DNA from: Amphiscolops sp. MND2022
Lineage: Eukaryota
DNA length: 60,000 bases
Assembly (NCBI GenBank): GCA_964187785.1
Contig: OZ076409.1
Location: 39,682,001-39,742,000 of the forward strand
Reading direction: 5' to 3'
Shown here: positions 335 through 30,270 of the stretch, piece by piece
How the letters are laid out: every line of letters begins with the position of its first letter
Numbering within the stretch: position 1 is the stretch's first letter
Made by a program: the position numbers and the translations under genes
The notes under the pieces: model-generated
The model's input: only the letters and a program-made list of their open reading frames with translations
Databases searched by the model: none
What the model was told of the DNA's origin: nothing

Positions 335-667
335 GACGCCCGCTAAGCACCGGGATATTTTCCCTCCCTTTTCGCCTTCACCAACTGAGCCATAGCTGTT
401 TTGGGAGGGGGAATAGGGTCTAAAGAATTAGATTTTACCTTTAGTGATTTTAGATCTTATTCCCGTCCTGAAATTTTAGATCTTATTCTCCTTAGATCTT
501 ATTCCCATTTTTACTTTAGATACTATTCCCTACTCTCAGTAGGGAACTGCAACTGACCAGCTGTCCTTGACTATTTAGTTACTTGGCAGTAATTTGGCAG
601 AATTTGAAAAAAACGCAACACAGATGATGATTTTCCTCCCCCATTTTAAAATGAGAGGTCGGAAAAT

Positions 668-5056: not shown

Positions 5057-5063
5057 ATTAATT

Positions 5064-6496
5064 ATACCAATTAATTGAGTATTTTTTAAGTCTCATATAC
5101 AAATGCCAAATAAAAAAATTAAAAACCCAAATACCAAATACATCGACAATGCCCAAAGTGGACAATGTAGAAACATGGGACAAAGATGTTAGAAAGAATT
5201 TGGGAGCCATCCCATCAGTGAATAGCTGAAAATCCACTGAAACATTAACAACAACAACAATACCAAATACAAATACCAAATGCATGATACTTTTGTCACA
5301 ACAACTGTTCCAGGTTATTGCAATGAGCAACGAAGGCGAGAGCGAAATTATACGCAATGGTGATTCTAATACAAAGTGGGTGGGCAGAAATAGGTCGAAG
5401 GAACGGGATCGAAAATCAGAGTTAGTCCTCGGGTCGACATACCAAATATTTGAATGGGATCAAAACAACTGGGATCGAAAGTTTGATTTTTGGGAAACAA
5501 ATCGAAATGCCGCAGATGGAATTTTCTAGAATAGTATAAAACCTGTATCGGATATGTCCCCATTTCCCCTAGTGCCCGGCGGCCCCTTGGTGCCGCTTAT
5601 GTTCCCATCTTGCTATGCGAGGTCCAACAGGAGCAAAGGCCTAGCGGGAACGGAGATCGCGAAGCGATCGTAGTGGGAGCAGGTCTTTGCGACGGTGAGG
5701 GCGAGCGTGCATACACAGCATATGCCCCACATTATGGTAGTCAATCGACTTTAGGCAAACAAAGAACGTTTTTGACCCGAAGGCTTCGATCAAATTCGAC
5801 CGCATTCTATTCGATCCCTGCAATTTAATCAAAAGGTTCGACCTTTGCCCTTTTGACCAGAAAAATTTGACCTATTTACAGCCACCCATACAAAGTCTGA
5901 TATACAATGTGATTCCGATACAAAGTGGATGTTAAATAAATCCACCAACGGCATTTATCGGCGCTTCATGTGTGAATTTAAAAACGGTCGTAAAACATGT
6001 ATGAGAAAGTGTATTCGATGCGAAACTGTTGGTTTCATGCATTCCACTTCCCTGTTTCGCGCACTTTATTGCAAGAAGTACGTTTTCTTGGCAAAACATA
6101 AGCCTTTGTTTCAGTAATTGACATAGTTGACAATGTTTGACGATTGTTTTTTCAATTCAATTATCTCAATTATGATAATACTCTACTCTCTATCTTTGCT
6201 GTTATATGCATTTTTTGTATTGTACAGTTTTCTGTATAATTCGTTACTTTAATCATTTTACTTAAATCATTTTTCGACAAATCTATCGATGAAATTAGTC
6301 AAATAATTTGTCGGTGATATAGTTGTCGACGAAATATCCCGGACCCAACCCAAATACCAAATGCAAATAGTGGATTTTGAGAAATACAAATACCAAATAC
6401 AAATACTGGTGAAGGTGAAGACCCAAATACCAAACCCCAATAGTAACGAACCAAATAAACAAATATCAAATACTTGCTGACCCAATTAATTGGAAT
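5064..6496. repeat. Probable non-autonomous element with short inverted termini and (aaatacc)-rich repeats; hosts a MITE
   Basis: ccaattaattgagt (5067-5080) and acccaattaattgg (6480-6493) are inverted (13/14 match); aaataccaaatac repeats at ~5100-5280 and ~6350-6470; no TSD visible. Confidence 0.4.
5378..5887. mobile_element. Second copy of the 9-bp-TSD MITE (opposite orientation, internally deleted)
   Basis: Termini gggtgggcagaaataggtcgaa ... cctatttacagccaccc; TSD atacaaagt at 5369-5377 and 5888-5896; internal sequence is the reverse complement of 746-1573. Confidence 0.9.
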
Positions 6497-9050: not shown

Positions 9051-9550
9051 CATTATTTTTCATCATAACTCAACCTCGAAACTTAACCAATTTGCAGGAA
9101 TACCACATTTGGGTGTGTGCCAGTTTCCCCAAAAAAACAATCACAACAACAGTGAAGCAATCTGTGAATGAAAAAAACCATGAAGCGTATGCTTTGCAAT
9201 AGTGCAGTAGACAAAACCATTTTCTGGAAAACAATGTGCTCGCGGACGAACAAGGTTCCAGAAGAAAACGAAACATTGTCAGACCGTTATACAGGCTACA
9301 TCTCAACCAAGAACTCTAGAATTACGAAAACACCAACTGCGAAATTGATCTAGAAAAGTCCCTCGACAGTGTGTGGATTGATGGCTTACTATTTGAACTT
9401 AGACATTATCAGGTGAATGGCAAAATGTACTTCATCATACGAACCTTTCTGCAGAACAGAGAGGCGATCATTGAGTTATCTGTCTATCTTTCACCTGCCT
9501 TTAAGATAGACATTGGTGTCCCTCAAGGTAGTGTCCTGCCACCACTACTA
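9051..9550 (+). mobile_element. LINE RT fragment
   Basis: DLEKSLDSVWIDGLL and GVPQGSVLPPLL motifs. Confidence 0.7.
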
Positions 9551-9569
9551 GTTGTTGTGATAAACTTGC

Positions 9570-12500
9570 ATGCTACACGTGGCCAGGACGCTTGCCTAGC
9601 AAAACCCACAAGTGTGAAAAATGTGCAACCTGTGTGGCCGACAACTCTGATGAAGTACAGTGCTCAAAGTGCGTGAACTGGTTTCATCTGGCTTGTAGTG
9701 ACGTGACGACAGAATTGGATCCCCATCTCGAAAGAATCGAGGGATGCCTATGGGTCTGCGAGTCCTGTTTACAACTGGTCGAGTACGATCTACAACAACC
9801 AGGTGGGACCAAACCTAATATTGATTCCATTAAGGATTGTGTTGATTCGACTGTTGAAGCATCTATAAAGCCTCTTCATAATAAGATTGCGCAATTATCA
9901 AAAATAATGTCAGAGTGTAAAGAGGAAATTGCCAAACACCAAATCCAAGTGCAGGAAAAAATCATTCATATTCCTCGTTTCCAGATAGAAGATGATACTA
10001 GTTTGCAAATTAAAATTGACAATATACTCGAGGCCGATAAAGATCAGAAACAAACTTTGAACTACGAAGAAGAAAAAGTGAGCAGTATCATGGAATTCCT
10101 CAGTGAAAATCCAACTGTTATCGGAATTGACGTGTTGGAAAGTTTGATCCTCTCAAGGAGCGACCACGATCAATGATTGTGACGCTCAATAGCCCATGGG
10201 ATATCAGGAAAATCTTAGCAAACGCACATGAACTCAAAAATTTTCCGGAAAAACGAACTAATAACTTATGAGGAAAGACAAGTGGAAAGAACTCTACTAT
10301 ATAAACGCCAAGAGCTTAGTTGGACGAAATGGTTGATTACATACCAAATTAGACGTTAATATATTCAGTTGCCAAAGTATTTATTTAGCCGATTCACGGC
10401 ATATTGTTGCCACCTGTATCTACCAAAATGCCAGACATATGCTAGACATATGATCTTAACAGAAACATGGCTAACAAAGGAAAAAATGGATGGCGAACTT
10501 CATTTACCCCATTATTGTCTAATACGAGCAGAAAGGGAAAGCAACCTCAGCGCAACTGCCCATGGTGATGTTCTAATAGCAATCCACAAAGACCTCAAGT
10601 ATTCCCCAGTCACTTTACCCACTGAATTACAAGTCTCATGTGCGGCTGCAGCGTTTATAGAACTGCACAAAAAACAACTTGTATTGCTTGCATATACAAC
10701 CCACCTGATAAAAGTACGTACCGTCTACCTATAAACGAGTGATCCTCTTTTTTCAAACCATTTAAAACCAGACAGCCGATTGGATTATGATAACGGGTGA
10801 TTTTATAAGGAAAAAGACAAATTGGGCTTCTATGACCTCAAGTGATCGGTATGAATAAAAGATCTTTGATGAATTGGATAGACTCAACTTTACACAAAAA
10901 ATAGGTTTATCCACCACCGAGCGGAACACCCTGGATCTTTTGTTTGTCAAAAACCCTGACTAAGTAGACGCTGCACGAGTACGAATCGAATTTAAGAATT
11001 CTTGTGAAAATAAGTTCATTTTCCCATACCTTTCACAGTTTGTTTGCTATCTACTAGACATGAATTCCAACCCAGCCCAATTTCTTCTACCAATTATTCT
11101 TGAAACAGATGTGATTACGACATAATGAAAGCACTTATAATTGAACAACCTTTCTTGCCCAAGTGTTGTAGCAACTGTGACCAAAAACTTGAAGAATGGT
11201 ATGCTTGGATTTCTGAAAAGCTGGACTCAACCACCCCAAGGCGAACGCAACACAGAAGAAAGCTCCCCCCATGGATTACACCTGGTACCTCCAATCTAAT
11301 GAATAGACTCTTCATTGTCAAAAAAGTGTATGAAAAACATCCAAACAGTATTTCAAAACGATATCGTTATGAGCTGAAAAACAATGAGATTGATAATGCA
11401 CTTGCTGAAGATCTCGTTGCATATCAAGAGAAACTCCTTGCCTCCAAAAGTGGATAATTATTGTTTAAACACTTCAGACAGCTAAAGCGCACTGCCATGT
11501 CGCCGCACCTAGAAGGAAGGACGAGTCTGCAAGAAGATTTAAAGCCCGAGCTAATTTACTAATAAAGTACTTTGCAACTATTTATCGAGAAACCAGTGCA
11601 ATAACAATGCCAGATTACACTGAATTGGGATCTTTTGACTTGAAACTTTGTCGAGATGAGTTAAGTCAAAGTGCAAAGAATTTAGTAATATCTAAAGCGC
11701 GAGGCCATGATGCTATCCCCTCTATACTGTATGTTAGGTCGGCAGATACACTTATTCATCCGCTCTACAATGTTTATCGGAATCTTGTTCGAACTTTTAT
11801 ATTCCCTTTGAAATGGGAGGAAGCCGAAGTGATTCCAGTATTCAAGAAAGGTTCGCAGACAAAAGTCGAAAATAATCACGCAATAAGTTTGTTAAACATT
11901 GGTAGCAAAACTTTTGAGATGATTATATTCCAGCGATTATTGGACATCTACGACCCCCATATGCAGGAGCGACAATATGGTTTCAGAACTGGTAGATACC
12001 CAATCTTGAGACTGCTGATAACGCTAAGTGAGATAAATTCCAATATTCAGAATGTTGAATGCCTTACACTCTTCTTATTCGACTTTCAGAAGGCGCTTGA
12101 TACGATCATATACGACATTCTTTGAAAAATGCAAAAACGTGAACTCTGTGCCGAACTTTAAAAACTCCTTTAATCATATCTCTGTCATCGCTATTTGAAG
12201 GTCCAAATTGATCTGGTTTTATCTGAGGCCAGTCAAGTTGAGAAAGAAATTCCTCAGGGTTCCTTTCTTGGTTCATTCTTTTTTGTGTTAATTATCGACA
12301 ATTTACCGAATGATATTGTATATATCTCTTCATACCTGTTTGATGACTACCTTTTTTCATTGTACACAGGACCCAACAACCCAGCCAATTGTTTAAAGTC
12401 TAATTTATGCCAACTTCAAACTTGGAGTGAAAAAAAAATGTTATTTTTCAATGTCAAAAAGTGCCAATATCTTATTCTCAAAGGTTCTCTAGGCTTTGAG

Positions 12501-12588
12501 CCAGAACTGTACAACGAGAAGACGAGAAGTTGATAAAAACGGAAGTATTACGGATTTAGGGCTCGTTGTAAATAACAATTTGAGATGG
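9570..12588 (+). mobile_element. Degenerate CR1/L2-group LINE: PHD-finger ORF1, APE endonuclease, RT; runs into the assembly gap
   Basis: ORF1 CEKC...VQCSKCVNWFHLACS...WVCESC; ILTETWL endonuclease motif; PPWIT; VIPVFKKG, QYGFRTG, DFQKALD and IPQGSFLG RT motifs; many stops. Confidence 0.85.
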
Positions 12589-12788
12589 NNNNNNNNNNNN
12601 NNNNNNNNNNNNNNNNNNNNNNNNNNNNNNNNNNNNNNNNNNNNNNNNNNNNNNNNNNNNNNNNNNNNNNNNNNNNNNNNNNNNNNNNNNNNNNNNNNNN
12701 NNNNNNNNNNNNNNNNNNNNNNNNNNNNNNNNNNNNNNNNNNNNNNNNNNNNNNNNNNNNNNNNNNNNNNNNNNNNNNNNNNNNNNNN
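12589..12788. other. Assembly gap (200 N)
   Basis: Run of N; the flanks are not necessarily contiguous in the genome. Confidence 0.99.
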
Positions 12789-13143
12789 CGAGGAACCTAT
12801 TTTTTACCATTGAACTTGTGACGTTTGTAAAATTTGAAGTACGTTTTCTTTTACCGCTAATGATCAAGGGGCTTCCGATGAATTTTTTGGTGTGAATTGT
12901 ATTGGAAAATTTATTCCATTCAAATTTTGATTTATGATTACATAGTAATTGAATTCTTCAAACCAAACCTAATTTTTGCGTTACGAAATCTACTTTGGAA
13001 TGGTTTAAAATTAGGTTCAAGCTTTCGTCAGGATTTTAAAATCAAAATTGTTCCAGTGGAAACTTAGTAACAACATTTTAAACTATCACGTACACTAAAA
13101 CCAATGCCACAAAAGTCTAAAAATTTGTCATTCCCTTTCAACG

Positions 13144-15858
13144 TCAATTTTCTTCGTCTGAGTCATCTCCACGATTGTCACTGTTTTCTTTTCTTGGGTC
13201 TTGACTACCGCTGCATCGGCTGCTGGTGTTTCCGGAGCTGCTCCCCGACTGGGTCTCACTGAATTCAGAGCGGGCTACCGGATCTTCATAGTCGAACATT
13301 AACTGCTCGAAGGGATGAATTGTTTTACTTGCTCGGAGGACAACATAACGTTGATTGTTGTCGGCAAATACAATGACATCAGTGGACTTCATATTGGCTT
13401 CTAAAACTGAGTGATTGGCAAGGCGACCCATACATCTACTATCAGGGTGGACAGGACACGTTTCCGCGGAGGCATTGATTATCCTTCGGCCGGGTCCTTT
13501 GACTTCAAGACAAAACTCCCGTTTAACACCTTCAATGGCGGATACTTCGTCCATTGATGTCTTGAGGAAAACCTGCCCGTGGTAATCAATGACGACTTCA
13601 TTTTTCTGGAAAACTCGGGTGGCAACGATTCCTCGTCCAAACTTGCTAAATGAAACTTGCGTGACTCCGGGCCATTTTTGAGATCGACATCTCTCCATAA
13701 GCAAAGTTTGATCTTCAAACTCCATATTGCTTGCCAATCCTTTGTAATAAATCTTCTGAATTGCCTTGTTCGTTTCTACTTTTGGGGTAATAAATATTGG
13801 GAGCACAAGTAGATAAACTTTTCTCAGGTCTTGGTTGCAGTCATTCTGCATCGTCCACTTCTGTCGCTGGAAATAGCTCTTCAGTCTCATTTCCAACGAA
13901 GCAAGGTCAGTTTTTCCATTCATATGCTTGAAAAAAGCATGGGCACGAGCTGATTGGCGGGCATATCTCTGTCGCTCCTGGTGCCTTCTCACCGCCGACT
14001 GCACGACCTGGTAGTCCAAGGCAATGTCCAGAGTCTGCCAAATTGCTCTAGTTTGGACCTTCAACTTAGGGAGTACTGCTTCAGTGTCGTTTGCGATGGG
14101 CAACACAACATGAAGGTGCCGTTCCAATTCCCACAGCGGGCTAGCACAGTGTTTCAGTACCTGTTTAAAACGATACCAACATTGAATTGTGTCTAAATGC
14201 ATTCTGAATTAATGATATCAACAGTGTACGTGTCACAGATAGATCGACCCCTGATTGGTACCAAAAACTAGCAAAACTAGCTCTACAATATAAATTGTCC
14301 CAGTTTCCACGGATTTTCAGTATAATTTGACTTGCTCAAAGAAAGCAATGCGGAAAGCAAGACCATATCTTTAAACACATGGCGTGGAAACCAGATACAA
14401 ATCTTAATACATTGCGAACTTTCACTCAAAGGGGTGTACACATTATTGCGCGTTACCATGAATGTCCTAGATTCCACGGTTTTAAGTTTGAATTGACTTA
14501 CTCAAAGAATGCATTGCGGAAAACAAGACCATATCTTTAAACACATGGCGTGGAAACCAAATACAAATCTTAATACATTGCGAACTTTCACTCAAAGGGG
14601 TATACACATTATTGTGCGTTACCATAAATGTCCTAGTTTGCACGGTTATTGAGTATAAAACGGCTCGCTTTTAAAAGTCTTCGAGAAAAAAAGACCATAT
14701 CTTTGAACACATGGTGAAAATCGAATACAAATCCTAACTCATAGTTCTATTCAAAGGGGTGTGATGATGATTTGTTTATACATACCGACTCCATATATTG
14801 GTCAACAACGTGGCTAGGTCGGAAGTTGGATTTCCCAGCTGAATTCACAAAAAACAATTCGGTGTACAGGATCCGATTGTCTGTCTCACTCAGCAGTCTT
14901 TCGAAAGGAGTCCCCTCACCGTGGTCCAGAAACTCGCTTCGAACACTCACGAAGTAGTCCACAAAGCCTTCCAATAACCATCGTGGGATATTGTAGCACG
15001 TTTTTCTGGCGCACCTCTCCGCTACATCTATCTCAAGCACGGAAGAGGCATTTTGGTCGTCTGATTCTTTCATCTTAACTGCTGCCTGCGCCACGGCGTG
15101 GACAGTCACATTGCTGACCTCCCGATCCAGAAAACCCAAGAATATTAAAACGTAAGCCATTAGACTTCGAAAGAACTCTATTTGGACCTTTTTCGTAGCC
15201 AGAATTCTCTTACTGCAACGCGATACATTCTCTGTTATTGTCCATTTAATGAAAGACTCCACTGTATCGGTTTTGTAATCAGGCTTCTTCTTCTTGGCGG
15301 GAACAGTCTAAAAAATGGAGAGTTTTCAAAAAGTGTCTTTATTGTATTTAAAACTGATAACGCATCCTCCAGGAATTAAAAAGTAAATTGGTTTCTATGA
15401 AACGTAACCCTTAATTGGAACGCAAAATTTGAACAATATGTATTCAGAAGTTTTACTATACTTACCATATCAACTGGTGGGGGCATTGGACGTTTGTTTG
15501 CTACATTATCGGAGCTTGGATGTCCATTGGACGGTTTTGGAGGAATTATGATCTCAGCTGGTAATTCGCTCTGATTGTTTAAAAGCTCGTTTATGACCTC
15601 TTCAGCTTCAGTCGGGAGATGTTCCGTTATTATTCCATCCTCATTGAAGCTGAATTCAGGTGGCTCTTGGAGGCGGAACGGAGTGCTGTTGAGTGGCCCG
15701 CCGGGTGTTTGGCTAAACATCACGGGCGATACCAGGGGCGTGAACAAACCAGAAGGAGTTTGCATTTGGGTTAATGTCAGAGGCGTAGACATGTCCGCGG
15801 AAGACGGTGTTGGAATTGGGGGCATCGACAAAGGCAGCGAGGTTTTATTTTGTTCCAT
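13144..15858 (-). CDS. Spliced ~643-aa protein: Pro/Ser-rich N-terminus + tyrosine-recombinase-like domain + SETD8/PR-Set7-like SET methyltransferase
   Basis: Phase-0 exons 15858-15466 (ATG|gtaagt), 15307-14786 (tttag|ACT, TCG|gtatgt), 14160-13144 (aaacag|GTA). SET motifs GRGIVATRVF, VIDYHG, GRLANHS, EQLMFDY. YR-like segments RSLMAYVLIFLGFLDREVSNVTV, LLEGFVDYFVSVR, LFFVNSAGK, TRAIWQT and RHQERQRY. Confidence 0.8.
14290..14760 (+). repeat. 166-bp repeat array 1 (~2.5-3 units) in intron 2 of the SET gene
   Basis: gacttgctcaaaga.. recurs at 14329 and 14495; same unit at 18950, 22980 and 25390. Confidence 0.9.
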
Positions 15859-16156
15859 TTAGGAAAGTTAGATTTTCTATTTTGACGGTCTGATTTTCAG
15901 AGACGATTTCAAGATAATGATTGTAGATTTCGAATATTTGTTTATATGAATTACGATAATATCTGATATTTAGTAATTAGTAGTGCCATATCCGGCTGTG
16001 CGACCGAAAACCTCAATCTTAAATGAGGCATGTAAAAAGCGTTATTTCGGAATGAGTCTAGTGTCTTCATTTCCAATTATTCCTAATAGTGCACCTGCTT
16101 CGTAATTAGGTGACGATTAGCTGTAATTAATTTGGGATGCAACCAATCTCGTTAGC

Positions 16157-16476
16157 GTCTTCTTTAACGCTCATCCCATCAACATTCATCACATAAAAAG
16201 TCTACATATTCTATTAGTTTCGAGCTTTAAAATAAAGTCTTCTTTAACGCTCATCCCATCAACATTCACCACATAAGGGGTTTACACATTCTATTAGTTT
16301 CGAGCTTTAAAATAAAGTCTTCTTTAACGCTCATCCCATCAATATTCACCACATAAGGGGTCTACATGTTTTATTAGTTTCGAGCTTTCAAATAAAGTCT
16401 TCTTTAACGCTCATCCCATCAACATTCACCACATAAGGTGTCTACACATTCTATTAGTTTCGAGCTTTAAAATAAA
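16157..16476 (+). repeat. 4 x 80-bp tandem repeat ending at the start codon (copy 1)
   Basis: gtcttctttaacgctcatccc... at 16157, 16237, 16317 and 16397; ATG at 16478. Confidence 0.95.
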
Positions 16477-16477
16477 A

Positions 16478-16849
16478 ATGCTTCTCCAAACCTTCTATGA
16501 AAATGAAGTTGTGCAAATCTTGGATCCTGCGACATCAATTTGGGAATCAGCGAAAATAATTTCCTTTGTGAGCGATTGGTGTGTAAGAATTAAATGGGTC
16601 GATTGGTCTTACAATAAAAAAGAAGATATCACTGTTCCCGAAGTATACAGACCTGACAAAAATTACTGGAATATTAGAAAATCCCACAATCTTGTCCGCG
16701 AAGAAACTGTGAGCAACAAAAGACGGTCAACACCTCTTAGCTACAACGCTCGTCGACTGGTCAGAAACGATCAAATTTACTTTTGGCAACCACAATGTAA
16801 CTGTGTAGATAGGAATGAGGCTAGTGTCTTCATTTCCAATTATTCCTAA
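16478..16849 (+). pseudogene. Truncated duplicate of the Tudor-like gene (N-terminal domain only, 123 aa)
   Basis: Near-identical to the first ~110 aa of the 17241 ORF, then reads into the duplicated promoter and stops. Confidence 0.75.
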
Positions 16850-16919
16850 TAGTGCACCTGCTTCGTAATTAGGTGACGATTAGCTGTAATTAATTTGGGA
16901 TGCAACCAATCTCGTTAGC

Positions 16920-17239
16920 GTCTTCTTTAACGCTCATCCCATCAACATTCATCACATAAAAGGTCTACATATTCTATTAGTTTCGAGCTTTAAAATAAAG
17001 TCTTCTTTAACGCTCATCCCATCAACATTCACCACATAGGGGGTTTACACATTCTATTAGTTTCGAGCTTTAAAATAAAGTCTTCTTTAACGCTCATCCC
17101 ATCAATATTCACCACATAAGGGGTCTACATGTTTTATTTGTTTCGAGTTTTCAAATAAAGTCTTCTTTAACGCTCATCCCATCAACATTCACCACATAAG
17201 GTGTCTACACATTCTATTAGTTTCGAGCTTTAAAATAAA
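16920..17239 (+). repeat. 4 x 80-bp tandem repeat (copy 2)
   Basis: Same units as 16157-16476, shifted by 763 bp. Confidence 0.95.
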
Positions 17240-17240
17240 A

Positions 17241-18679
17241 ATGCTTCTCCAAACCTTCTATGAAAATGAAGTTGTGCAAATCTTGGATCCTGCGACATCA
17301 ATTTGGGAATCAGCGAAAATAATTTCCTTTGTGAGCGATTGGTGTGTAAGAATTAAATGGGTCGATTGGTCTTACAATAAAAAAGAAGATATCACTGTTC
17401 CCGAAGTATACAGACCTGACAAAAATTACTGGAATATTAGAAAATCCCACAATCTTGTCCGCGAAGAAACTGTGAGCAACAAAAGACGGTCAACACCTCT
17501 TAGCTACAACGCTCGTCGACTGGTCAGAAACGATCAAATTTACTTTTGGCAACCAGAATGTAACTGTGTAGATAGCGAAAGATGCCAAGAGGACCGTTGC
17601 TGCGGGTCAGTTGTGATGGGTTGGGTAAAAATTAATGACCCTTTCTGTCAACAATGTTTGATAACCGACGTCGAGGACAATGATGAGTATGTTTCGTATC
17701 GCCAACTAAGAAATAAACCTTGTGTAAGAGACACTGAACCAGAAATTGATGAAACTGAACAAGATCATGAATCAGGATCTGACGTACATCGCCCATTCGT
17801 CAAAAAGCAAGCCCGTGTGACAAGCGCCACCCAACCGATGCCACAAGTCGACATTCTTTCCTTGCTTCCCAGTGTTGACGATGACGTTGAATTAACATAT
17901 GCACCCTGTGAAAATGATATCATAAAGGTAATGTTTTCTTGCTTTTTTGCTTACAAACTTTGCTTTTGAATTTTGATAACCCTGGATTGGCACCAAATTT
18001 TTCAAAGTATTTTTCCCACCAAATATTTGTTCAATCTTTTTATTTTCAGGTGGGATCTATTGCATCTTACGCAAATGATGATTTTGAAATCAAGAAGATT
18101 TACTATGATCATCAGAAGAGAAAAGCATGTGCATTCATGCAGAGCAGAAGTGACCCTGACATTGAAGTGCGCATCCCGACAATTCGTGTTGTCACAACAA
18201 CATCTTCTAAAGGCGATGTAATGGATTTTAATTCGCTTCTGGAGCCCATGGACCAAGCCTATGCTTTGTTTTCTGCAATAAAACGAATGGTGGGACTCTC
18301 AAGAAAGAAGCATTCCTTAACCGCAACATTAGTTCCCTGTACCCCACTGACAAAAAAACTCTGTGGCTTCGAAACTGGCAATCTCAAAGAGGCCGTTAAG
18401 TATAGTGTTGCAAACCAAGAGGGACATAAATGGTGCAACGGTACATGGGATACTGTACTTGGAAGAAATTGGGATATGATCCCATGTCACGCAAGCGATG
18501 GAGAAGATGTTCTTATAAAGACAATGAGGTTCATTGAACATCGAGAATTTGGCATGTTCACGATTCGTGTCCAGTTTTTGTCAAGCCAAGGCCACTACAA
18601 AAACAGCCAATATAGAGATCTGTTCGAAATGTACCTGTCTCAGATGCATGAAATACTCTTAAATACTCCTAAATTTTAA
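17241..18679 (+). CDS. Spliced ~438-aa protein with an N-terminal Tudor/chromo-barrel-like domain and an unknown C-terminal domain
   Basis: Exons 17241-17927 (AAG|gtaatg) and 18050-18679 (ttttcag|GTG), phase 0. FYENEVVQILDPATSIWESAKIISFVSDWCVRIKWVDW has the spacing and aromatic residues of Royal-family barrels; Cys-rich middle region. Confidence 0.7.
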
Positions 18680-18949
18680 AAAAACTTTCTATTCGTGTTT
18701 GATCATTTTTTGTTTCTTCAACAATTTATCTTTCATCATTATTAGTAATTATTACAATATAAGCTCCATGACCTTGTATTCTTGAAAATTCTTGAGAAAA
18801 GTCTTAGACTATCGAATTACTTTATTCTGAAATGTAATGCACTTGTCACATATAGATCAACCCCTGATTGGTACCAAAAATGATACAATCTCAACAATTT
18901 CCGGGATTTTATTTGCATGTTTTCCAACTTTTTTCAGGATATTTGATTT

Positions 18950-19365
18950 GCACCAAAAAGCAATGCGGAAAACAAGGACACATCCTAAAAAACATGGCAT
19001 GAAATCAAAACACAAATCGTAATGCATTGCTCAATTCTGTTCGTCTCGGTTTCCACGGATTTTCAGTAAAATTTGACTTGCTCGAAGAATGCAATGCGGA
19101 AGTCAAGACCATATCTTTAAACACATGCCGTGGAAACCAAATACAAACCTTAATACATTGCGAACTTTCACTCAAAGGGGTATGTATGTATGCAGACACC
19201 GGATTGCGCATTACCATAAATGTCCTGGTTTCCACGGTATTTAAGTGAAAATTGACTTGCTCAAAGAAAGCAATGCGGAAAACAAGGACATATCTTTAAA
19301 CGCATGGCGTGGAAACCAAACACAAGTCCTAATACGTTGCTCAATTTCATTCGAAGGGGCGTAGT
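18950..19365 (+). repeat. 166-bp repeat array 2 (diverged), between the Tudor-like gene and the transposase
   Basis: caatgcggaaaacaaggac...gtggaaacc...cattgcgaactttcactcaaagggg units. Confidence 0.85.
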
Positions 19366-19762
19366 CATGGTTTTCAGAAAATAATCAAACAATTTTTGTT
19401 TTTCTTTTTTTATTACCTTTTGAGTATTTCCAATCAGATAACGCTTTACCAAGATGAAACAAACAGTCCTGAGAAGTGAAAACTTCTAATTACGAGTGAT
19501 AAGACTTAATGGAAGACTCTTTTGCATCTGATTGTGATTATTGACAAAATGGCCTTGGGTGATATGGACTCAAATTATTAAAGTATAATTGAACCGTAAT
19601 TCATCAGTTTAATGAAGAGACTCAAAACCGGACTCATTTCACTTGTGGGTTTGTGTATCTAATTGCATTTCATTTTATTGTATGGTGAGGGTTGCAGTCT
19701 GACAAATGTTCTACAATCTATACAATTTCACTTTGCAATAAACCTAAAAACCAGCTTTAGAA

Positions 19763-22700
19763 ATGACTCCACTGTCAATGTGGGAAAGAAATATTATCGA
19801 AGCGGAAAATGGGAAATTCTTCGCTAACTGTCGACTTTTTGACGATATATCCGGAAAAGAAATACCGAATAAGTTTCGGAAGTTCGAGACACTTGTTGGG
19901 GAAATGTTGACTGGGACAAATTTAAATTCAAAAGAATTCATTCGAAGAATTGCTGTTAAAGGCCAGAAAACCCCCCCTGTATTTGTAGCAGCAAAATTGG
20001 CAAAACTACTTGTACTGCGTGGATTTAAAGACTTCCCTTGGAACTCAGCCAGAAGAGAGTTTGTCAGTTTGTTTTTCAATAATGATGTCATACCATATAA
20101 CAATCCTTACATGAAAGACACCCTTGTGACACCTGCAGATGCGACTCCTGAAGATTCGGCCCCTGAAGGTCAAGTCAGTGACAATTCTCTCTCAAAAGAA
20201 AGAAAGCTAGAAATATCAGACGCCAAAAAAGTCAAACATGAACAAACTGATCCAATTAGAACAGATCTGATGTCAGAAGTTGGGTTCAACAGTTTCATGA
20301 AAAAAATCAAAAGCTCTGCAAATAAGAGAAAAGATCAACGATTCACAAAAAAGAGGACCCAAACTTAGTCAAAAAAATTGTAGAAGATCTTTTCGAAAAA
20401 AGAGGATCTACTGATGAGTTCAGGCACCATTTATCTCTTGTCACGAAAACGGGTAACACGGAAGATGTTATAAAAGTTATTCGAACAAGACTTTCAATTG
20501 TTGGACTCGGATACAATTTAGTCCCATGCATTCGATTGGTCAAGAAGTCAACATCCGAAATTCAGTCCTACTTTACAGCAATGTGTGAGCCAGAAAGAAC
20601 CTTTTCTGGTTTTCGCTGCAACCTGATAAAATGCGTGGAGACGGTGTCATACTTCTTGTTTGGAACGAAAGAACTCAATGGCCAACGAGTTGATATCTGG
20701 GGAGATGGTTGTGAAATTGGAGGTGTCGAAACAACACGAATTGCATTCCGGATCCTTACTGACAAAATGAAGTGTCAATCATCCGATGCAGTATTCTGTT
20801 TTGCTGCATACAGGGGTAAAGATAGTAGATTCGCAATGGAGCAAAACCTTGGGCCAACTATAGCTGGAGTTCAAGAGTCTGGTTGGCTTTTTATGAAGAC
20901 CCTGGAACTATCAAAACGCGGAGTTAATTTAACATACAGTGGCGATTCGCCGTTTTTAATGAGATTGGTGCTCGGAATCACAAATGAATCAGCTAGCCCA
21001 TCGAAAATGCCACTCTATATAACAGAACTTGATTACACACCAACAAAATGTCATCATGAAACTGGTCTACGATCTGATGTTATTATACCCTTCAGAACGG
21101 ATCTTCCAAAATCTTCCTTGGTCTTCTACGAAAATATACAATCAGTTTGTCCTGATGCCACGCATATGACCACCCGTTGTGTTGAAAATGACCTCCAAAG
21201 AATTGCACAGAAAATTATCAGAGAAAAGCATCCTAATCATGATGTAGCAATTCGCCAGCTTGAAGAAAACTTGACAAGAAGAGATGCGAGACCATACTTT
21301 CAGTTCAACATATCTCATAGAAGTGGTTCGTGTATCGGTACTGTAGGTGCAGTATCCCTCTCAGGTGGTAGTGCTCTAGCGGTCATTGCTGATAAAGAGG
21401 AGCTTGCAGGTGCAAAAGACGGTAAAATTAGCGATCTTTACCATGGTGTTTGGGGTCCCGAAGATATCATTGTTGGCAGTGAAGAAAACGCAAATGTCCC
21501 TTGCGTTAACATCCTAAGAAACTGGTTTCCTAAACTTTTCAATAAAAATAACCCCAAGCAAAAAGAGTCCAATGACAAATTCATATCTGCTTTTGATGCT
21601 TGCGAACTCCTGCGATCGTGTTTAAACCAATGTGTTTTATGTCTGCGAGCAGAAGAATTCAACAGTGAAACGTTCAAAAAATGGGCTGAAGTTTATTACC
21701 AAACCAATATCTTGATATTCGGGCATGCCGGTTTGACACCTTATAAATTGAAAATGCTGATGTTTCCTCAACTTGTTGAGAGTGGATATATAAAGATATA
21801 AGACCATTTGATCATTTGTGTGAAGGTCTTGAAAAATCGAACCACCAAGCTAATCGTGGCTTTCAGACAAAGACAATGCGCGGAGAAGGTAAGATCTATC
21901 ACAAGGATCCACTATTCCTCGAGTCGTCCTTTTCTTTCTTGAAATTTTTAAGATTCGCAGTTGAAGTTGAAGACAAAGGCTCGGACGCTGAACCAACTTC
22001 TAAGATTATCATGGAACCTGAACAAGACGCAACAACAGAGGTCTACTTTGATGACCATAATATGACTGGAAACAGAAAGATCTATCAGACAGTTTCGAAC
22101 AGTACCACAAACAGCGTAATGAGTATACTTCATAGTGCAACAAAAGTGATGGGCATTGACGTTCCGGGACCTGAGTACCTTGATATTTGCCGCATAGAAC
22201 CACCGTTAACAACTATCGCCATTGGATGTCAAGAAAATCCTTTAAGTGGATTAAGATTTTGTCTGCTTGGTCGCTTGGGTACTTGGAAAAAACATACTCT
22301 AACACATGACATGGTGAAACAATTGATCATCAATATGGGAGGAACTGTTCTAGAAAATGAACGAGCTGACGTGTTGATGAGCACCCATTCACAGCTCCCC
22401 AATTGTTTTGTTCTCGTCAAGGACGAAAAAGACTTAATCTTAGGTACCGGTTCCACAGAGGAAATTAATGACATGAAGAAATCAAGGAAAAGAGGGTCAT
22501 CAGTAACACGGGAGGGTGGAAATGAACCATCACAATATTCCAAAATAGCAAAACGATTCGCAGCTGGGGGTTTCAAATTCTTGAATATCGAATTTTTATC
22601 TGAAGTTGACGAGAAAAAAATGCTGATTGACCCGGAGCCATACATTCTTCAGCCCGGATCCAAACTTGTTGAAAATCGTGTCAACGACAAAGACCTTTGT

Positions 22701-22841
22701 TCTTGGACCAATGCAGTGGAAAAACACTGGGTGAAGGTGTATCTGCGATTGTCGCTCTCAAGAGATACCGTGATGGCACTTTTAAACAACTTTCGTTTTG
22801 ATTTACTGTTCTCTTCTAATTCATATGTTACCCGAACTTGA
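19763..22841 (+). CDS. RAG1/Transib-like DDE transposase with C-terminal BRCT domain (~1000 aa; frameshifted in this assembly)
   Basis: Ordered RAG1-core-like motifs: IWGDG (D1), QSSDAVFCFAAYRGKDS, SGDSPFLMRLVLG (D2), CPDATH, LTPYKLK, CEGLEKSNH (E). BRCT-like PLSGLRFCLLG...VKQLIINMGGTV. Frames join at the A6 run 20347-20352 and at ~21795-21800; possible third shift at 22689-22691. Confidence 0.75.
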
Positions 22842-22979
22842 AACTATTCAATAAATTCTTCAAAAATAAGTATTTTCATTAGGTTTATTAAGATGCTCCT
22901 ACGAAACTAGTTTTACATATCATAGATTGGTGCCAAAAAGCACACAATATTGGGCTCCGTTTCGGCAAACTTTCGTTTG

Positions 22980-23365
22980 TCTTGGTTTCCACAAATTGAA
23001 TGCGCATTACCACAAATGTCCTAGTTTCCACGGTTTCAAGTTTGAATTGACTTACTCAAAGAATGCAATGCGGAAAACAAGACCATATCTTTAAACACAT
23101 GGCGTGGAAACCAAATACAAATCTTAATACATTGCGAACTTTCACTCAAAGGGGTATACACATCATTGCGCGTTACCATGAATGTCCTAGTTTCCACAGT
23201 TTTAAGTTTGAATTGACTTACTCAAAGAATGCAATGCGGAAAACAAGACCATATCTTTAAACACACGGCGTGGAAACCAAATACAAATCTTAATACATTG
23301 CGAACTTTCTTTCAAAGGGGTATACACATTATTGCGCGTTACCATAAATGTCCTGGTTTCCATTG
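22980..23365 (+). repeat. 166-bp repeat array 3, between the convergent transposase and JmjC genes
   Basis: Two near-complete units starting ~23049 and ~23215. Confidence 0.9.
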
Positions 23366-23617
23366 AGTTTTTACCTAGCGGAAATTCACTGTTGAGGTAT
23401 ACTCCTGATTTTTCTCCTATTATTCTTGCATAATCTTGGAAATTATTGCATTAGACGTCCAAACGTTTCAAAGCATGTTTTGAATAATTGAGAATTTTTC
23501 AATTCGTTTTCCAATTAAACTTCTTGCGCTCGTCACTGAATAAAACAGATTGTAAGGTATTTGGCAGTTTTGTCATTTATTTGTATGATACTGAAAATCT
23601 AAATCTGAATCTACAGT

Positions 23618-26600
23618 TTAATCTAAATCTAAAATATCTAGTTCAAGGGGGATTGAGCGGATTCCCGTAATGGCAGCAACAAGAGGACAGCGTTTTGGGT
23701 GCAAAGATGGATCTACCATCTTTGCCGGCAAGAGAGTTCTTCCCTTGCCTTTAACATGGGTAACCATCATTGCAGGTTTTGACTCGAGTTCTAGTAGATC
23801 CGTTGTCGTCATTACTTCCTCGTAGCTTTTCGTGTAGGGGTCAACAGCGATGGGCACATGCTCTGGAACAGTAAGAGCCTTACTGGGGTCAGTATTCTTC
23901 TCGGGATGCTCTCTCAAATAACTGCGGCTGCTGCTTGGTGGCTCACGCAGTGTCACTGAAGCTCTTTTTTGGCCCAGTACGATGTGAAGTCTTTCAGGAC
24001 TGAAATCGGGTAGCACCTGTAAAACGTAAAAATCAAACTTTAAACCTGGAGAGCAAACTTTCAATTGAAAAATCCGAAATATTTTTGGTATAGTTCTTGT
24101 TTATTGACTTAGAAGCACAAAATTTCACTCAGTTGTGTTTTACTTGCATGTATATCAGTCAGACATGAATGTAGAGGATGATCAATTGAAAAAAGCAAGA
24201 CTTGTTCATAAACATAAGTTTTTGAATTAGAAAATGACCCTCGATTGGAACCAAAATGGAAATGATTGAAAATGGAAAATTGAAGTTTTGTGACCAAACA
24301 AGAGTGAAGGCTTAACAATCTTACTTCACGGGCGGCGTGTTCATTGTATAGTGATTGCACTGTGCTGTACATCGACACCAGGCGTCGACAGAGTCGAGGG
24401 CACAGCTTTTCGGCAATACGGTACATCAGAAGTACCAACATCTCTGGAAGATCAGGGAACTTGTCATCGGATCTTCTCGGGAACTCGACGATGATTGAGT
24501 GTCTTATCATGGGCAGGTGCCCGAACGCCAGGAAGTTCGTTCCCAACGAAATGGCATTGCCTTTCGTAAGTACAAAGTGGAGGAAATTTGCGGGCATGAC
24601 TAGAACATCTCCAGCTGTGACATGCAACCGCAAACATCCCTCTTCCAGCTGGTCGATGTTCCCGAAGAATGTTGGCCTGAAAATAAAAGTACATCGAAGT
24701 TGCTTTTCTAATTTTTTGACATCAATAGAAGTAAACTAGAAAAAAGTTTAAATATTTGAAAAGAGACGTTAAATGCTTGCTTGTTGTTTTCCATCACCAA
24801 AAAATGTTAGTCAAAAAGTATAATTGTTTGTTTTTGAAAATAGAACAGTGTTCTTGAAGACAATAAAGTTGGTGTATTAGTTAAGTTTTGTTACTTACGT
24901 AGTGTCGTTCTCAGCATTCGACCATCTTTCAAAATTACTGAGGTTTTTCTTCGACGGTTTCACCAAGAAGAAAATCTTCTCTCCAGTTAGAACTGTGTAA
25001 AACACAGACGTCGAAGAATAATCCTGATGCCACGTCGTGTGCGCAGAATCTTGAGTGACCAGGACATAATAGGGAGTAGAACAAGAGTAATGCTCGGTTC
25101 TCGACTTCCCGATCTCCCTGTCGGCCAAATGGTTGATGGAGTTGTCAGCCACCATCTTGGGTACTGAGTATATGGCCTTGGGGAGTGTCCTGACATCGAT
25201 GACGTTTAGAGGGTAATACCGACTGCCTGGATGACAGTTGGCCAGCTCCACGAAAAACTCGTCATACGCGTGTCTGCAAAAAAACATCTATTAAATGATG
25301 CTAGGCAAGGTTCTAATTCATGTTATCAACAGTATACTTGTCACAGGTAGATCGGACCTGGATTGGTACCAAAACGAACTCGACATAACTGTCCCAGTTT
25401 CCACGGATTTTCAGTATAATTTGACTTGCTCAAAGAAAGCATTGCGGAAAGCAAGACCATATCTTTAAACACATGGCGTGGAAACCACATACAAATCCTA
25501 ATACATTGCGAACTTTCACTCAAAGGGGTATACACATTATTGCGCGTTACCATGAATGTCCTAGATTCCACGGTTTTAAGTTTGAATTGACTTACTCAAA
25601 GAATGCAATGCGGAAAACAAGACCATATCTTTAAACACATGGCGTGGAAACCAAATACAAATCTTAATACATTGCGAACTTTCACTCAAAGGGGTATACA
25701 CATCATTGCGCGTTACCAGGAATGTCCTAGTTTCCACGGTTTTAAGTTTGAATTGACTTACTCAAAGAATGCAATGCGGAAAACAAGACCATATCTTTAA
25801 ACACACGGCGTGGAAACCAGATACAAATCCTAATACATTGCAGAACCTCACTTGAAGGGGTATACCCATGGTTTGTGTTTTGGAACAACTAAATTCGGTT
25901 TTACTAAATGCTAAACATGGTTCAAACGAGTAAAAAGTGTTTTTTACCTCTCCGATTCTGGCTGACTTGACTTCAATTGGAGCATCAGGTTCAGCAAGGT
26001 TGACCGGTCGCAGAAGCCGTTTGATCTCCGCGACAAAGCCTTTTTTTCGCGGAGAATTTTGGGATTTTCAGTCCTGTGCAATGCTTGGCTCCATTTCTCC
26101 AAATCAAGGGGACACCATGTCGAAGAAAGTGACCAAGGTGTTCGGTTTGATTGTCATGGGGACCCTGCCACTCAGCGTAGGAAAATTGACATTCCAGAGG
26201 CACGTTTTCGCAAAATGCGAAGTGCTCTTGGGTGCCAAATGGGGCCGCTGGAGTCCCAGAATTGAATGTCAAATCAAGTGGCATCGGTGGTTGGGCAATT
26301 TGACATTTGACTGATCTCGCAATGTGGTTCCTTAGGCTGTAGCCGTACCCGAATGAGGTCCCACACGAAATGCAGAAATGACGGCTTCTTTTTTTTCCTC
26401 TCGCAGCTTCTGTAATTTCAAAGACAATTTATCAAATGAATGTCCAAAATTTTTTCTCATGAATTTCATTCATGGTATGACCCATGATTGGAACCAAAAA
26501 TCTTCCAAGATTTCATGAATGCTTTCATAGTATGACCCATGATTGGAACCAAAAATCTTCCAAAGATTTTATGAATGCTTTCATGGTATGACCCATGATT

Positions 26601-28030
26601 GGAACCAAAATCCTTCCCGAAAATTTGTGTTTTTAGACCTTCCCTTTCACATCAGAAAAACATTGCCCTTCTTTTTCTATTGCATACGGTAATCGGTTCA
26701 AGACCGTAAAATATTTCAAAACAAGAAAAAAAATTCTGGAAACAATCTTAACACTAACGGTATTGGTACATCCTGACTTCTTCTCCAGCAGCAATCTTTT
26801 CTTGTTGCTTCGTGCAATATTTGGCTCTTCTTTGATGGCGCTCTTTACTTTTTTTGGTCGTGAAAATCTGACCACATTTCTCGCACGTCAAATTCTGGGC
26901 AACTTGTTCCTGCTTGCTGACACTTTTGCATCCGGGAAGATGACGGGTTAAGTGCCATTTTCTTCCAGCAACGTAGTCGCAATTCGAACACGGGAAACCT
27001 AAACATAGCCTTTTGAATTATACGAGATGAAGAAGTCAAATAAAAAACCAACCTATACATACAATATACATACCAAAATCAGATTGTTTTCCACGAGTTA
27101 CAAAAATGATAGGTTTCATTTAGATTGCTCGAAACTTTGAAAAATGGTAGACATGATATATTGATCCACGTGATGTTTGATTTGTCAAACTATTTATCAT
27201 TTCAATTTCAATATCAAAAAATGGAGATTGTCGCTTGTCAATTGGAATTGTCAAAACGAGTACAAGAACGAGTAAATGGAAGTCTTACGTTTTTTAGGTG
27301 GCGGAGTTGTATCTCGAAATTCGTCACAGAGTTGTCGTTTTCGGTTTTCTGGCAAACCAGGGCAAGTGCGGGCATGAACAGCAAGGGCTTCTCGAGTGGG
27401 GGCATAATGGTCGCAAGCACCGATTGTGCAGAGATGACCTGAGTAATGAAACAACGATGAAAATATATACAAAAAATGTGAATATATTCAAAAATTATTT
27501 TTTGAACACCGCTGTTCATACAGCCTCAAAATTTCAATACAAATAAATCCAAATAAAGTAAAGAAACGTTCATCAAAACTTCAAACATTTTTCATCTTCG
27601 CAGTTGAATTTACCCGTTTCAGCAGTTTGATAGTTTTTGACCTTTTTCACTGATAGTCAAGAAAAAGTAACGCAGGAATTAACGACTTACCAAGGAACAG
27701 TTCTGATGATGAGTCAGATGAGTCCATGCGGGATCTAAAGTTCTGCGAAGTGCTGGGTCCGCTGGGTCCGGGGGCTTGCTCAGAAGTACTTTGCTCAGAA
27801 GCAGCTGTTTTCTTCGATTTCGGCTGTAACAACTTGAAAATGTGAATAAAAGGTCCAAAATATCAAGTGCAAATAACATGAAATTTAAATTAGTTCAAAT
27901 AACGAAGACAAAATTGTTTACGAGAAAGTTTGGATCTTTCCGTCTCATCCCCCCATCGATTTAAGTCCCCCAGTTATTATTAAATAAAAGTTTTATAAAT
28001 TACCTTTAAAAAAATATTAAAGTATCTCAT
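23618..28030 (-). CDS. Spliced ~716-aa protein: four C2HC zinc fingers + KDM2/KDM7-type JmjC histone demethylase domain
   Basis: Phase-compatible GT-AG exons: 28030-28004 (tentative), 27823-27691, 27438-27289, 26998-26759, 26409-25948 (one extra base in T7 run 26041-26047), 25287-24899, 24676-24325, 24016-23618. JmjC motifs TTWHQDYSSTSVFYTVLTGEKIFFLV and AGDVLVMPANFLHFVLT..SLGTNFL with intact H-x-D...H. Fingers CTIGAC..HARTC, CSNC..HLPGC, CEKC..HQRRAKYC, CISC..HIARSVKC. Confidence 0.85.
25390..25870 (+). repeat. 166-bp repeat array 4 (~3 units) in a JmjC gene intron
   Basis: Unit starts at 25423, 25589 and 25755 (exact 166-bp period). Confidence 0.92.
26465..26620 (+). repeat. 3 x ~55-bp tandem repeat in a JmjC gene intron
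   Basis: tcatggtatgacccatgattggaaccaaaa-type units with GATTGG at 26486, 26541 and 26597. Confidence 0.9.
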
Positions 28031-28394: not shown

Positions 28395-28556
28395 CCAAAT
28401 AACATAAGAGCAAATATCATAAAACGAAATTAGTTTCAAATGACAAAAATGAAATGAGTTTGACATTATAAAATAAAATTGTTTACGAGAAAGTTTCATT
28501 TTCATGTTATTTGAACCTAATTTTGTTTTTATGCTATTTGCTCTTATGTTATTTGG
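28395..28556. repeat. ~160-bp imperfect palindrome (foldback/MITE-like)
   Basis: ccaaataacataagagcaaata...aaatgaaa pairs with tttcattttc...tatttgctcttatgttatttgg; partial relative at ~27856-27930. Confidence 0.8.
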
Positions 28557-28822
28557 TACCTAATCGACAATTTTTCAACCAAAAATTTATTTCCGAAAAC
28601 GAAAAAATCAATTTACCATTATGATTGGCTTCGGGTTATATCCGTTGATTGGCTGAGGGTAGTATCGGCTGCTGGATGTCTGCAAAACTTTGAGTTGTTG
28701 AGAGAATCAAAGAGAGATTCAATGGGAGATTCTGGCTTGTTAATCAGTTAACAGTCCGAACGGTGAGAAAACAAGTTTGACAATGAAAACTGCCGGTCAG
28801 TTAGCAATCGGTCAGTTGCTGT

Positions 28823-28988
28823 GATACGCGCCGCTGATACGAGCCGCTGATTAGCCAATAGGAATCACCCACAGTTGGAACAGTCATCAGTTTGGTACGA
28901 GTTGCTGATACGCGCCGCTGATTAGCAAGGAAATTACTCACGATTGTAACAGTAATGATTTTGATACGAGCCGCTGATACGCGACGCT
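28823..28988 (+). repeat. Five copies of a GC-rich 13-mer gatacg(c/a)g(c/a)cgct
   Basis: Copies at 28823, 28836, 28907, 28963 and 28976. Confidence 0.85.
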
Positions 28989-29854
28989 GGTGAGCTTTCA
29001 AGCGATGACCGATAAGGCAATAACAATCATATCTGTTCTAATATTGTTGACAAGCAATAAGTTTAAAAGCAAATAGAAAGCAGTTTCTCGATGACCGTGT
29101 AAATTCGAGAATGTTCTAGAAAATATTCGAAAAAAAATATTCGAATACGAAAAATCTTAATCTTTTGCTGTTTATTCTTCGCCTCGAATCTTGATAAAAT
29201 TCAGTACGAATTTGGCCTCTAAACCTGAAGCATAATACATCATTGGTTGCTTTCATTTTCACGCCCGAAACGATCAATAGAAACCGAAAATCTATAGTTA
29301 ACGATTTCAAATATCGTTCAAATAGATATCATTTTGATTAATTTTGCTCAGATTCGACCCATGATTGGAACCAAAATCTCCCCATTTCTCCACTCTAATT
29401 ATTCAAATAAATTTTTCATTTTCCAGTATAATTTATTTCAGTATAAATGTAGTATTTCACTCTTGTGTATCACTATAGTATAAAAATATTCCAGTATAGT
29501 ATAGTGAACATTATAGTTAAGTATAGTACAAGTAACCTGAATCTTTTCAATTGCATTCTAATTGACTATTTTAATCAAATTTTTATTTTTATTTATCTAA
29601 GCAGCTTTACGATTCGACCCACGATTGGAACCAAAATCCCCCGAATTCCACGAAGATTTTAAAATTTCATTAAAATAATTTATTCCAGTTGGTATAAATG
29701 TATTTCACTTTTGTATATCACTATGTACAATCAGTATAAGTATTTTGCACTTTGGTAAAGTGTTGAAAGAAATTTTCCTTTTTCGTTTTTTTTAAAATTC
29801 ATTTTCAAATTTCATTTTTTCAAATTCAAATGCAGTCTGTATAATTGTAGTACG

Positions 29855-29881: not shown

Positions 29882-30270
29882 ATGAAAGGAAGAGAAGCCG
29901 ACAGTTTTACGGAAAGAGAGACATTGATTTTCACTTGTTTGTGGAAATTGACTTTGTATTTACTCTCCGGCTTATTAAATTTGATTTCAGCTAATTAAAA
30001 TGTAAGTGGAAAGTAAGACGCTGAAATTTGCAGCCATCTGATTGGTTGTAATGCACTTTGTGGAATCCAAGACACGAATTTGGCGGCATCTTGTCGGCAT
30101 TTGTCGGCATATTTTTGGTCCCAGTTTCCGCAAAATGAAACCGGCTAACGTATTAACCCATGCCCTCGGATTCCGAAAAACACCGATTTTCGTGGCGTGG
30201 ATTCCGCAAAATCAGTGCTAAATTGCCAATTTTGCACGCTTTAAGACATGTCTGCGGAATCGGAGGGCCT

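Follow-up and report, generated by a model that had tools for sequence, protein, structure and literature searches.

The window analysed here, a stretch of 60,000 nucleotides from Amphiscolops sp. MND2022 (contig OZ076409.1, positions 39,682,001 to 39,742,000), contains a DNA transposon, at least 17 kb long and present in many copies, that is not viral. The four genes of the element, spliced or frameshifted, lie between a gap of N (12590-12789) and about 30.2 kb, and its non-coding DNA carries four co-oriented arrays of a repeat of about 166 bp. The repeat is built from a bipartite module, GGAAW-N15-TAAACA, in which two short cores stand about two helical turns apart and which is conserved in related elements. 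The arrays are probably docking sites by which the element's own proteins would recognise it and prevent its silencing. Stated more narrowly, the sequence comparisons give about an even chance that the arrays, dispersed in non-coding DNA, are a conserved platform to which a protein encoded by the element binds, and that they work like the VANDAL/VANC target repeats or like internal subterminal sites. What appears to be new is the occurrence of internal repeat cassettes in a large RAG1-fold transposon with histone-modifying cargo.

Repeat arrays in introns and spacers

The original prediction, made from the sequence alone, described four arrays of two to three units, all on the plus strand whatever the strand of the host gene, and Tandem Repeats Finder (TRF), a repeat search and nhmmer agreed with this layout. 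A profile of the unit detected 11 full or near-full units (A 3, B 3, C 2 and D 3; E 3e-30 to 2e-54) and a single 28-nt partial at 23343. The predicted period of 166 bp held for arrays A, C and D, which TRF placed at 14290-14737, 23001-23362 and 25390-25869, respectively. Array B did not keep it strictly; with spacings of 131 and 179 it was too irregular for TRF and was recovered by the repeat search. The profile found no array unit in the 42 kb of flanks within the window, the single match outside the block (8146, E 2.5) being at chance level.

Over their first 136 nt, units of different arrays are near-identical, as had been claimed (A2-D2 99%, A1-D1 97%, C1-D2 97%), and decay is greatest in the edge units A3 and B0 (59-78% identity). 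The closest pairs occupy equal positions in different arrays (A1 with D1, A2 with D2), which points to copying or conversion of whole cassettes and is in line with the homogenisation that had been proposed. The inverted sub-motifs described for the unit were present in the unit alignment. A contig of 265 nt from sequencing run X2 (record 10) links a B-type unit (19038-19183) to a C-type unit (23001-23110) through nine other letters, an array variant not present in the window. A 166-bp satellite is also carried by Helentrons in the oyster, a likeness in length.

None of the four arrays overlaps a modelled exon, and the predicted confinement to introns and spacers was thus borne out. Array A lies inside a 625-nt GT-AG intron (14785->14161) and array D inside a 674-nt intron (25947->25274), both of minus-strand genes and both with joins in frame. 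Array B lies between the stop codon at 18679 and the transposase ATG at 19763, and array C between convergent 3' ends of genes. Rfam and a tRNA scan each returned no match, indicating no RNA gene, and no RNA run was among the sequencing-run matches listed. The unit folded no better than its shuffles (z 0.74 as DNA, 0.30 as RNA) and gave no stable fold-back. The CpG observed/expected ratio was alike in the block (0.91) and outside it (0.86 and 0.91).

The homology between A and D starts at 14202 and 25311, about 90 nt before the first unit, and extends over 540 nt at 87.6%. Since it reaches upstream of the first unit, the repeated object is a cassette, consisting of a leader, common to all arrays, and the array itself (Table 1). 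A GATTGGWACCAAA-type box, referred to as the GATTGG box, is present in all four leaders. The window contains 11 GATTGG boxes, every one on the plus strand, outside modelled exons and between 14253 and 29623, compared with 0-2 in 30 shuffles. The box was absent from the four related loci described below when two mismatches were allowed, and may be specific to this family.

The leaders of A, B and D also contain a 7-mer starting with CAC, which was noticed post hoc. Together with a 20-nt spacer and an A-rich tract it was compared with the consensus recombination signal sequence, as given in the accessible part of PMC8289069. This candidate was rejected because the spacer is neither 12 nor 23, the arrangement is not in the related loci and the resemblance was found post hoc.

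Conservation of the module in related elements

A single metagenome scan yielded four loci (L001-L004), which represent two independent elements with transposases 44-48% identical to that of the window. In L003 and L004, two different transposase introns open with one 220-nt cassette (93.6%), which starts at the donor site and has a period of 166, and the arrays hold only 1.2-1.3 units. The cassette of L001 and L002 has a period of about 113 and occupies a transposase intron at yet another, third position; 2.2 kb upstream of it, L002 carries a further copy in the same orientation. Both L002 and the window copy lack introns at the positions of the L003/L004 cassette introns. That introns specific to one lineage begin with the cassette suggests a way in which introns could be gained within mobile elements. 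A different, 32-bp repeat occurs in the cassette intron of L002 (2352-2399), with an inverted copy downstream of the transposase (5408-5463), so that here, too, an internal motif has an inverted counterpart towards the 3' side.

The module follows the sense strand of the transposase in every cassette of the window and of the related loci. A profile made from the L002 and L003 modules only scored nine array modules of the window at 18.0-22.4 bits and found no site of 12 bits or more in the 42 kb flank on either strand. When a 63-nt profile made from the window only was applied to the four loci, the intronic repeat was the top match in each of them, a result reached by 0, 0, 1 and 0 of 100 shuffles. 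The whole 166-nt unit, in the register set by the module, scored 62 against the L003 unit, compared with 17+-9.6 for shuffles (0 of 500 reached it); the units of the window and of L003/L004 share only about half identity. At this level of comparison the bipartite module was shown to be conserved in sequence, spacing and orientation across related elements, and the suggestion that the arrays are binding sites gains support from this conservation: they are probably bound by protein.

The transposase

Searches of Pfam and of PDB sequences did not place the transposase and Atlas gave no usable match; only the fold search did. A model built from an alignment of 46 sequences (predicted local distance difference test score, pLDDT, 89.8) had RAG1, HzTransib and BbRAGL as its first matches (Foldseek E 3.4e-5). 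When the model was compared with RAG1-type structures by VIA, the Z scores were 15.6 (root mean square deviation (rmsd) 6.9, 363 aligned) and 14.9 (rmsd 3.4, 313 aligned), the next family being the P element with Z 10.0 and unrelated folds reaching at most 6.2. Among the homologues, D127 is conserved in 27 of the 27 rows with a residue, D207 in 42 of 42 and a DxxH motif in 43 of 43. The motif HxxExxExS[NH]H, which holds the downstream Glu, is found in 28 of 45, most of the misses being fragments. D127, D207 and the Glu motif are the probable equivalents of the RAG1 catalytic residues.

According to the accessible parts of PMC12730594 and PMC7204232, zinc ligands of the types C(2)C, past the second Asp, and H(3-4)H, ahead of the catalytic Glu, define the CMCT clade (Transib, RAGL, Chapaev, EnSpm, Mirage, ESTA and Plavaka). 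A CxxC was found 10-40 residues past the second Asp in one of 45 homologues and the window protein has none there. No His is among the commonest residues in alignment columns 471-480, the place where H(3-4)H would be expected; a single conserved His stands just ahead of the Glu motif. A BRCT-like C-terminal tail was matched in 13 of the 46 aligned members, mostly below the curated cut-off. On the basis of the model, the protein is a RAG1/Transib-fold DDE transposase in which the zinc site appears to have been lost, and it is predicted to work like a Transib/RAG transposase, although it is not classed as a member.

The sister copy P0286 reads 939 aa unbroken, indicating that the frameshifts of the window copy are decay or assembly error. 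Low-depth contigs of sequencing run X1 have single-base indels at 22688, 26041 and 26061, the frameshift sites of the transposase and JmjC genes in the window, which suggests that other element copies differ at these sites. The homologues form 273 clusters at 50% identity and none of the ten looked up was named; no transposase locus was found in the viral or prokaryote collections scanned. The lineage was not described in the literature searched, and Repbase, subscription papers and supplements (for example those of PMC12730594 and of broad DDE surveys) could hold it. It adds a widespread unnamed family of RAG1-fold transposases without the zinc site that is otherwise conserved in the clade, and bears on the origins of RAG.

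The element, its cargo and its ends

Clusters of the window proteins at 90% identity have 128 (transposase fragments), 76, 30 and 10 members, and an exon of the SET gene (98% identical) belongs to one of 45; the members may stem from more than one assembly, and these sizes are not copy numbers. Up to 15 members were listed for each cluster; among these matches, in which contigs were told apart by their length, two or more different element genes occurred on 14 of 56 contigs, and six of 12 transposase contigs also carried cargo. The element genes travel together in many copies. The JmjC gene encodes three to four zinc fingers (one exon matches zf-C2H2 at E 1.6e-6) and, after them, a PHF8/KDM7-like JmjC domain (E 6e-11) in which the HxD is kept.

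At the likely right end, the profile of L002 and L003 modules also scored a minus-strand site at 30174 (Table 1). A CAC start lies beside this inverted module at 30217 on the minus strand, and related motifs continue to about 30270. Elements of the CMCT clade have 5'-CA..TG-3' ends with terminal inverted repeats and a target site duplication of 2-5 bp. An inward-pointing site near an end has the look of a subterminal transposase site, in which case the internal arrays would have the orientation of the left end. The candidate subterminal stretch adjoins a Bel/Pao fragment without a matching long terminal repeat in the window, and nested short inverted repeats are found at the junction (30160-30270). 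Just left of the SET stop codon, weak module-like sites at 13027-13090 scored 8.4-9.7 bits, within the background range, and could possibly be the start of a left subterminal region.

Table 1. Coordinates of the genes, repeat units, cassettes and other features of the element in the window.
Feature	Position	Strand	Description
Three-exon gene ending in SET domain	13144..15858	-	Pfam E 1.5e-10; SETD8/KMT5A best in PDB, E 2e-5
Two-exon cargo gene	17241..18679	+	no assigned function; GATTGG box in intron (17985)
RAG1/Transib-fold DDE transposase (from model)	19763..22800	+	BRCT-like tail; frameshifts near 20350, 21795, 22690
Multi-exon zinc-finger/JmjC gene	23618..27823	-	frameshift near 26050; modelled without start
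Array A units	14294, 14457, 14623	+	nhmmer
Array B units	18910, 19040, 19215	+	nhmmer
Array C units	23012, 23177	+	nhmmer
Array D units	25385, 25551, 25717	+	nhmmer
Cassette A	14202..14770	+	leader (GATTGG box 14253) and 3 units; in SET gene intron
Cassette B	18820..19373	+	leader (box 18866) and 3 units, spacings 131 and 179; upstream of transposase
Cassette C	22920..23371	+	shortened leader (box 22925), 2 units and partials; between convergent 3' ends
Cassette D	25311..25876	+	leader (box 25361) and 3 units; in zinc-finger/JmjC gene intron
Conserved core, example	25612..25671	+	pair of 26-nt modules of the GGAAW-N15-TAAACA type, set 34 nt apart; L001-L004 have a homologous core
56-bp tandem array	26457..26617	+	2.9 copies, GATTGG box in each; intron of JmjC gene
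Two further GATTGG boxes (29363, 29623)	29346..29645	+	non-coding right arm
Candidate right subterminal region	30040..30270	-	inverted module at 30174 (18.2 bits) and related GGAA motifs

Several other features of the block and its flanks were recorded. For the middle exon of the SET gene (14786-15307, minus strand), the nearest Atlas cluster is an unnamed, chiefly mollusc set (0.95), followed by a tyrosine-recombinase/phage-integrase set (0.90, the family being assigned on 13% of members) and a DUF3504 set (0.88). These matches are a lead only, and it is possible that the exon is a decayed tyrosine-recombinase (Crypton-like) domain fused to SET; no longer fused form of the SET exon or of the middle exon was found, which is weak evidence. 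Directly upstream of the ATG of the cargo gene without assigned function there is a 763-bp tandem duplication (98.8%, 16049-16821 and 16812-17585), each half with four copies of an 80-bp repeat, which is either a recent event or an assembly artefact. Upstream of the zinc-finger/JmjC gene, in the non-coding arm on the right, there are an imperfect 160-bp palindrome (28395-28556), with a partial copy at 27851-27931, and a 13/69-bp tandem repeat (28822-28995). The flanks (1-12590 and 30270-60000) consist of nested, decayed long interspersed nuclear elements (PHD and reverse transcriptase domains), Bel/Pao, which is essentially metazoan and indicates an animal host, and other repeats, with inverted copies at 746-1554, 5395-5887 and 39239-39661.

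Proposed function of the arrays

If the arrays are a binding platform, the module would be the binding site of an element-encoded protein. The transposase is the most likely candidate, since the module is conserved together with it and occurs in inverted form at the likely right end. Duplication or conversion inside the element would have carried the cassettes to spacers and to new introns, a mode of spread that would keep them co-oriented and homogenised, and they would be tolerated only in spacers or as introns. The protein bound to the arrays may then recruit, or act with, two chromatin enzymes of the element, the SETD8-like methyltransferase and the JmjC demethylase with its zinc fingers. 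The chromatin over the element would thereby be kept permissive and the element would mark itself, as the VANC target repeats do in VANDAL. As described in the accessible parts of PMC5735166 and PMC10398659, VANC binds motifs that are amplified as tandem repeats in the introns, spacers and termini of VANDAL elements, and these target repeats differ quickly between families. A preprint reports, in the part available, that a transposase itself activates its own family (bioRxiv 10.64898/2026.08.24.746577). The slow divergence of the module fits a transposase or a host reader; the candidate site for the zinc fingers would then be the GATTGG box, a speculative assignment.

Several observations weigh against this interpretation. 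The four related loci count as two, L001 and L002 being 98.7% identical and L003 and L004 apparently pieces of one gene, and the cargo genes were not seen in these loci, which are short. The 63-nt core and the modules were chosen after the loci had been inspected. An unguided 60-nt identity test was marginal (its 35, 34 and 34 matches were equalled or exceeded in 3, 2 and 2 of 30 shuffles), its best diagonal falling in the same register in all three loci. The module is conserved between families, whereas VANC target repeats diverge fast. The case for the right end is one site, and exact 11-mers score 4 there against 3 for five others of 191 windows; no pair of terminal inverted repeats (TIRs) or target site duplication (TSD) was seen in the window, the left end lying at or beyond the N gap. 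The JmjC exon cluster has one member, three look-ups gave no match and the clusters do not show that this gene travels with the others; its co-travel is indicated by its adjacency and by X1 contigs that span both genes.

A fuller picture, in which the window represents large animal transposons of an undescribed lineage with a zinc-less, BRCT-tailed RAG1-fold transposase and a self-contained anti-silencing system, is tentative. The cassettes would derive from a subterminal transposase site, would be able to found new introns, and would bring in the methyltransferase (of H4K20 type) and the zinc-finger histone demethylase that the element itself encodes. The means by which DNA transposons of animals evade heterochromatin are largely an open question, and the clearest case of sequence-specific anti-silencing in the literature searched is that of Arabidopsis, the trick having been found described only for plants. 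The element offers the parts for a direct test, namely a module of 26 nt, a further box that may be specific to the family, and candidates for the readers and enzymes.

Alternative explanations

Among the alternatives, the one that survives best, though unlikely, takes the cassette to be a non-autonomous mobile element of small size, or an introner, whose interior holds a tandem repeat; it would insert widely, land in the transposon by chance or preference and have no function for it. Introners are a known class, and the L003/L004 introns that open with the same type of 220 nt from the donor site at different positions, their absence from L002 and the window copy, the third position used in L002 and the CAC-starting 7-mer (post hoc) of leaders A, B and D would all fit such insertions. 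However, independent insertions should take both strands, and all 11 units of the window and all cassettes of the related loci are co-oriented with the transposase. There is no copy in the 42 kb flank, where a genome-wide satellite, MITE or Helentron with central repeats could have left one with ends and target duplications of its own, the homology among the cassettes continues upstream of the leader CAC, and among the 25 longest inverted repeats listed none of 25 nt or more bounds a cassette. Furthermore, conservation follows the transposase family, and among the matches listed three of eight X1 contigs leave the array for flanking sequence that belongs to this element (for X1, the listing covered 16 of the 62 pieces and 12 of the 56 loose ends, and contig depth was not read as copy number).

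It is rather improbable that the module binds conserved host transcription factors and that the arrays are enhancers driving the element genes, for example in the germ line. Its two cores seem to resemble ETS-type and forkhead-type sites. A host protein that evolves slowly would suit conservation at 48% transposase identity, the transposase ATG follows cassette B at a distance of 390 nt, and the leader has a reverse CCAAT-like box. A host factor reportedly acts at the TIRs of ProtoRAG. However, enhancers do not usually have a fixed spacer, here of 15 nt, or so strict an orientation, and cassettes also occur between convergent 3' ends and deep in introns.

The original prediction also named nucleosome positioning, and a role of the period itself, with each 166-bp unit seating one nucleosome or chromatosome and phasing chromatin over the element, is quite improbable. 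The period does recur in one related element, L003/L004, despite about half unit identity. However, the spacings are 131 and 179 in B and about 113 in the other related element, the L003/L004 arrays are little longer than one unit, and W dinucleotides do not recur at 10.4 bp in the unit (power 0.27 compared with a shuffled 95th percentile of 1.02). Phasing could be a secondary feature of a binding platform.

The proposed likeness to the homologous regions of large DNA viruses, by which the arrays would be replication origins of an integrated virus, is very improbable: the arrays are dispersed and homogenised and have imperfect inverted motifs, but they lack a stable fold-back, the genes have spliceosomal introns and a DDE transposase at their centre, Pfam named no viral hallmark, none of 12 open reading frames (ORFs) had a viral family in PHROGs (a prokaryotic-virus library and a weak test), BFVD gave nothing for the transposase model at E<=0.001, IMG/VR yielded neither repeat nor relative, and scans for the repeat or two-module pattern gave 0 in viral contigs, 0 in prokaryote genomes and 0 in phages.

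Comparison with known systems

The window element resembles Transib/RAGL (ProtoRAG) and CMCT in its RAG1-type fold, the top structural match, in its DDE-type acids and DxxH, and in being multi-copy. It differs from CMCT in that the C(2)C and H(3-4)H ligands were not found in the transposase, which has a BRCT-like tail in place of the C-terminal tail (CTT). In contrast to Transib/RAGL, it measures at least 17 kb and carries SET and JmjC cargo and internal repeat cassettes. No RAG2-like kelch gene as in RAGL/ProtoRAG was seen; the convergent gene is the zinc-finger/JmjC gene, and the BRCT-like C-terminus takes the place of the CTT cysteine motif.

With introners, L003 and L004 share a near-identical sequence that opens introns at different positions. 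Unlike introners, the cassette was seen only within this element family, is antisense in the two introns of the window, is also intergenic and had no TIR or TSD that was found. DNA transposons with chromatin-modifying enzymes, as here, are the SET-encoding HarbingerS and MuDR elements of Phytophthora and the TET-encoding fungal ESTA and Plavaka, and ESTA transposases are also RAG1-like, according to the accessible part of PMC12730594. These are oomycete or fungal elements, and the same part of that source reports neither a pair of SET and zinc-finger JmjC genes nor internal arrays.

The closest parallel in layout is VANDAL/VANC of Arabidopsis, in the MuDR superfamily. As far as the accessible parts of PMC5735166 and PMC10398659 describe it, it shares with the window element a large multi-gene DNA transposon in which motif-bearing tandem repeats, homogenised within the family, occupy introns, spacers and terminal regions. 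The window element differs in its animal host and in its transposase superfamily, which is RAG1-fold and not MuDR, and Pfam named no VANC homologue or MuDR transposase domain in any ORF of the block. In an anti-silencing system of the VANC type, a protein encoded by the element binds the motif and clears silent marks, and the window element has candidates for such proteins. It also has a putative histone writer and eraser of its own, and a module that is conserved between families and not fast-diverging. If the proposed function is true, the element would be to animals what VANDAL/VANC is to Arabidopsis, and would itself encode the enzymes.

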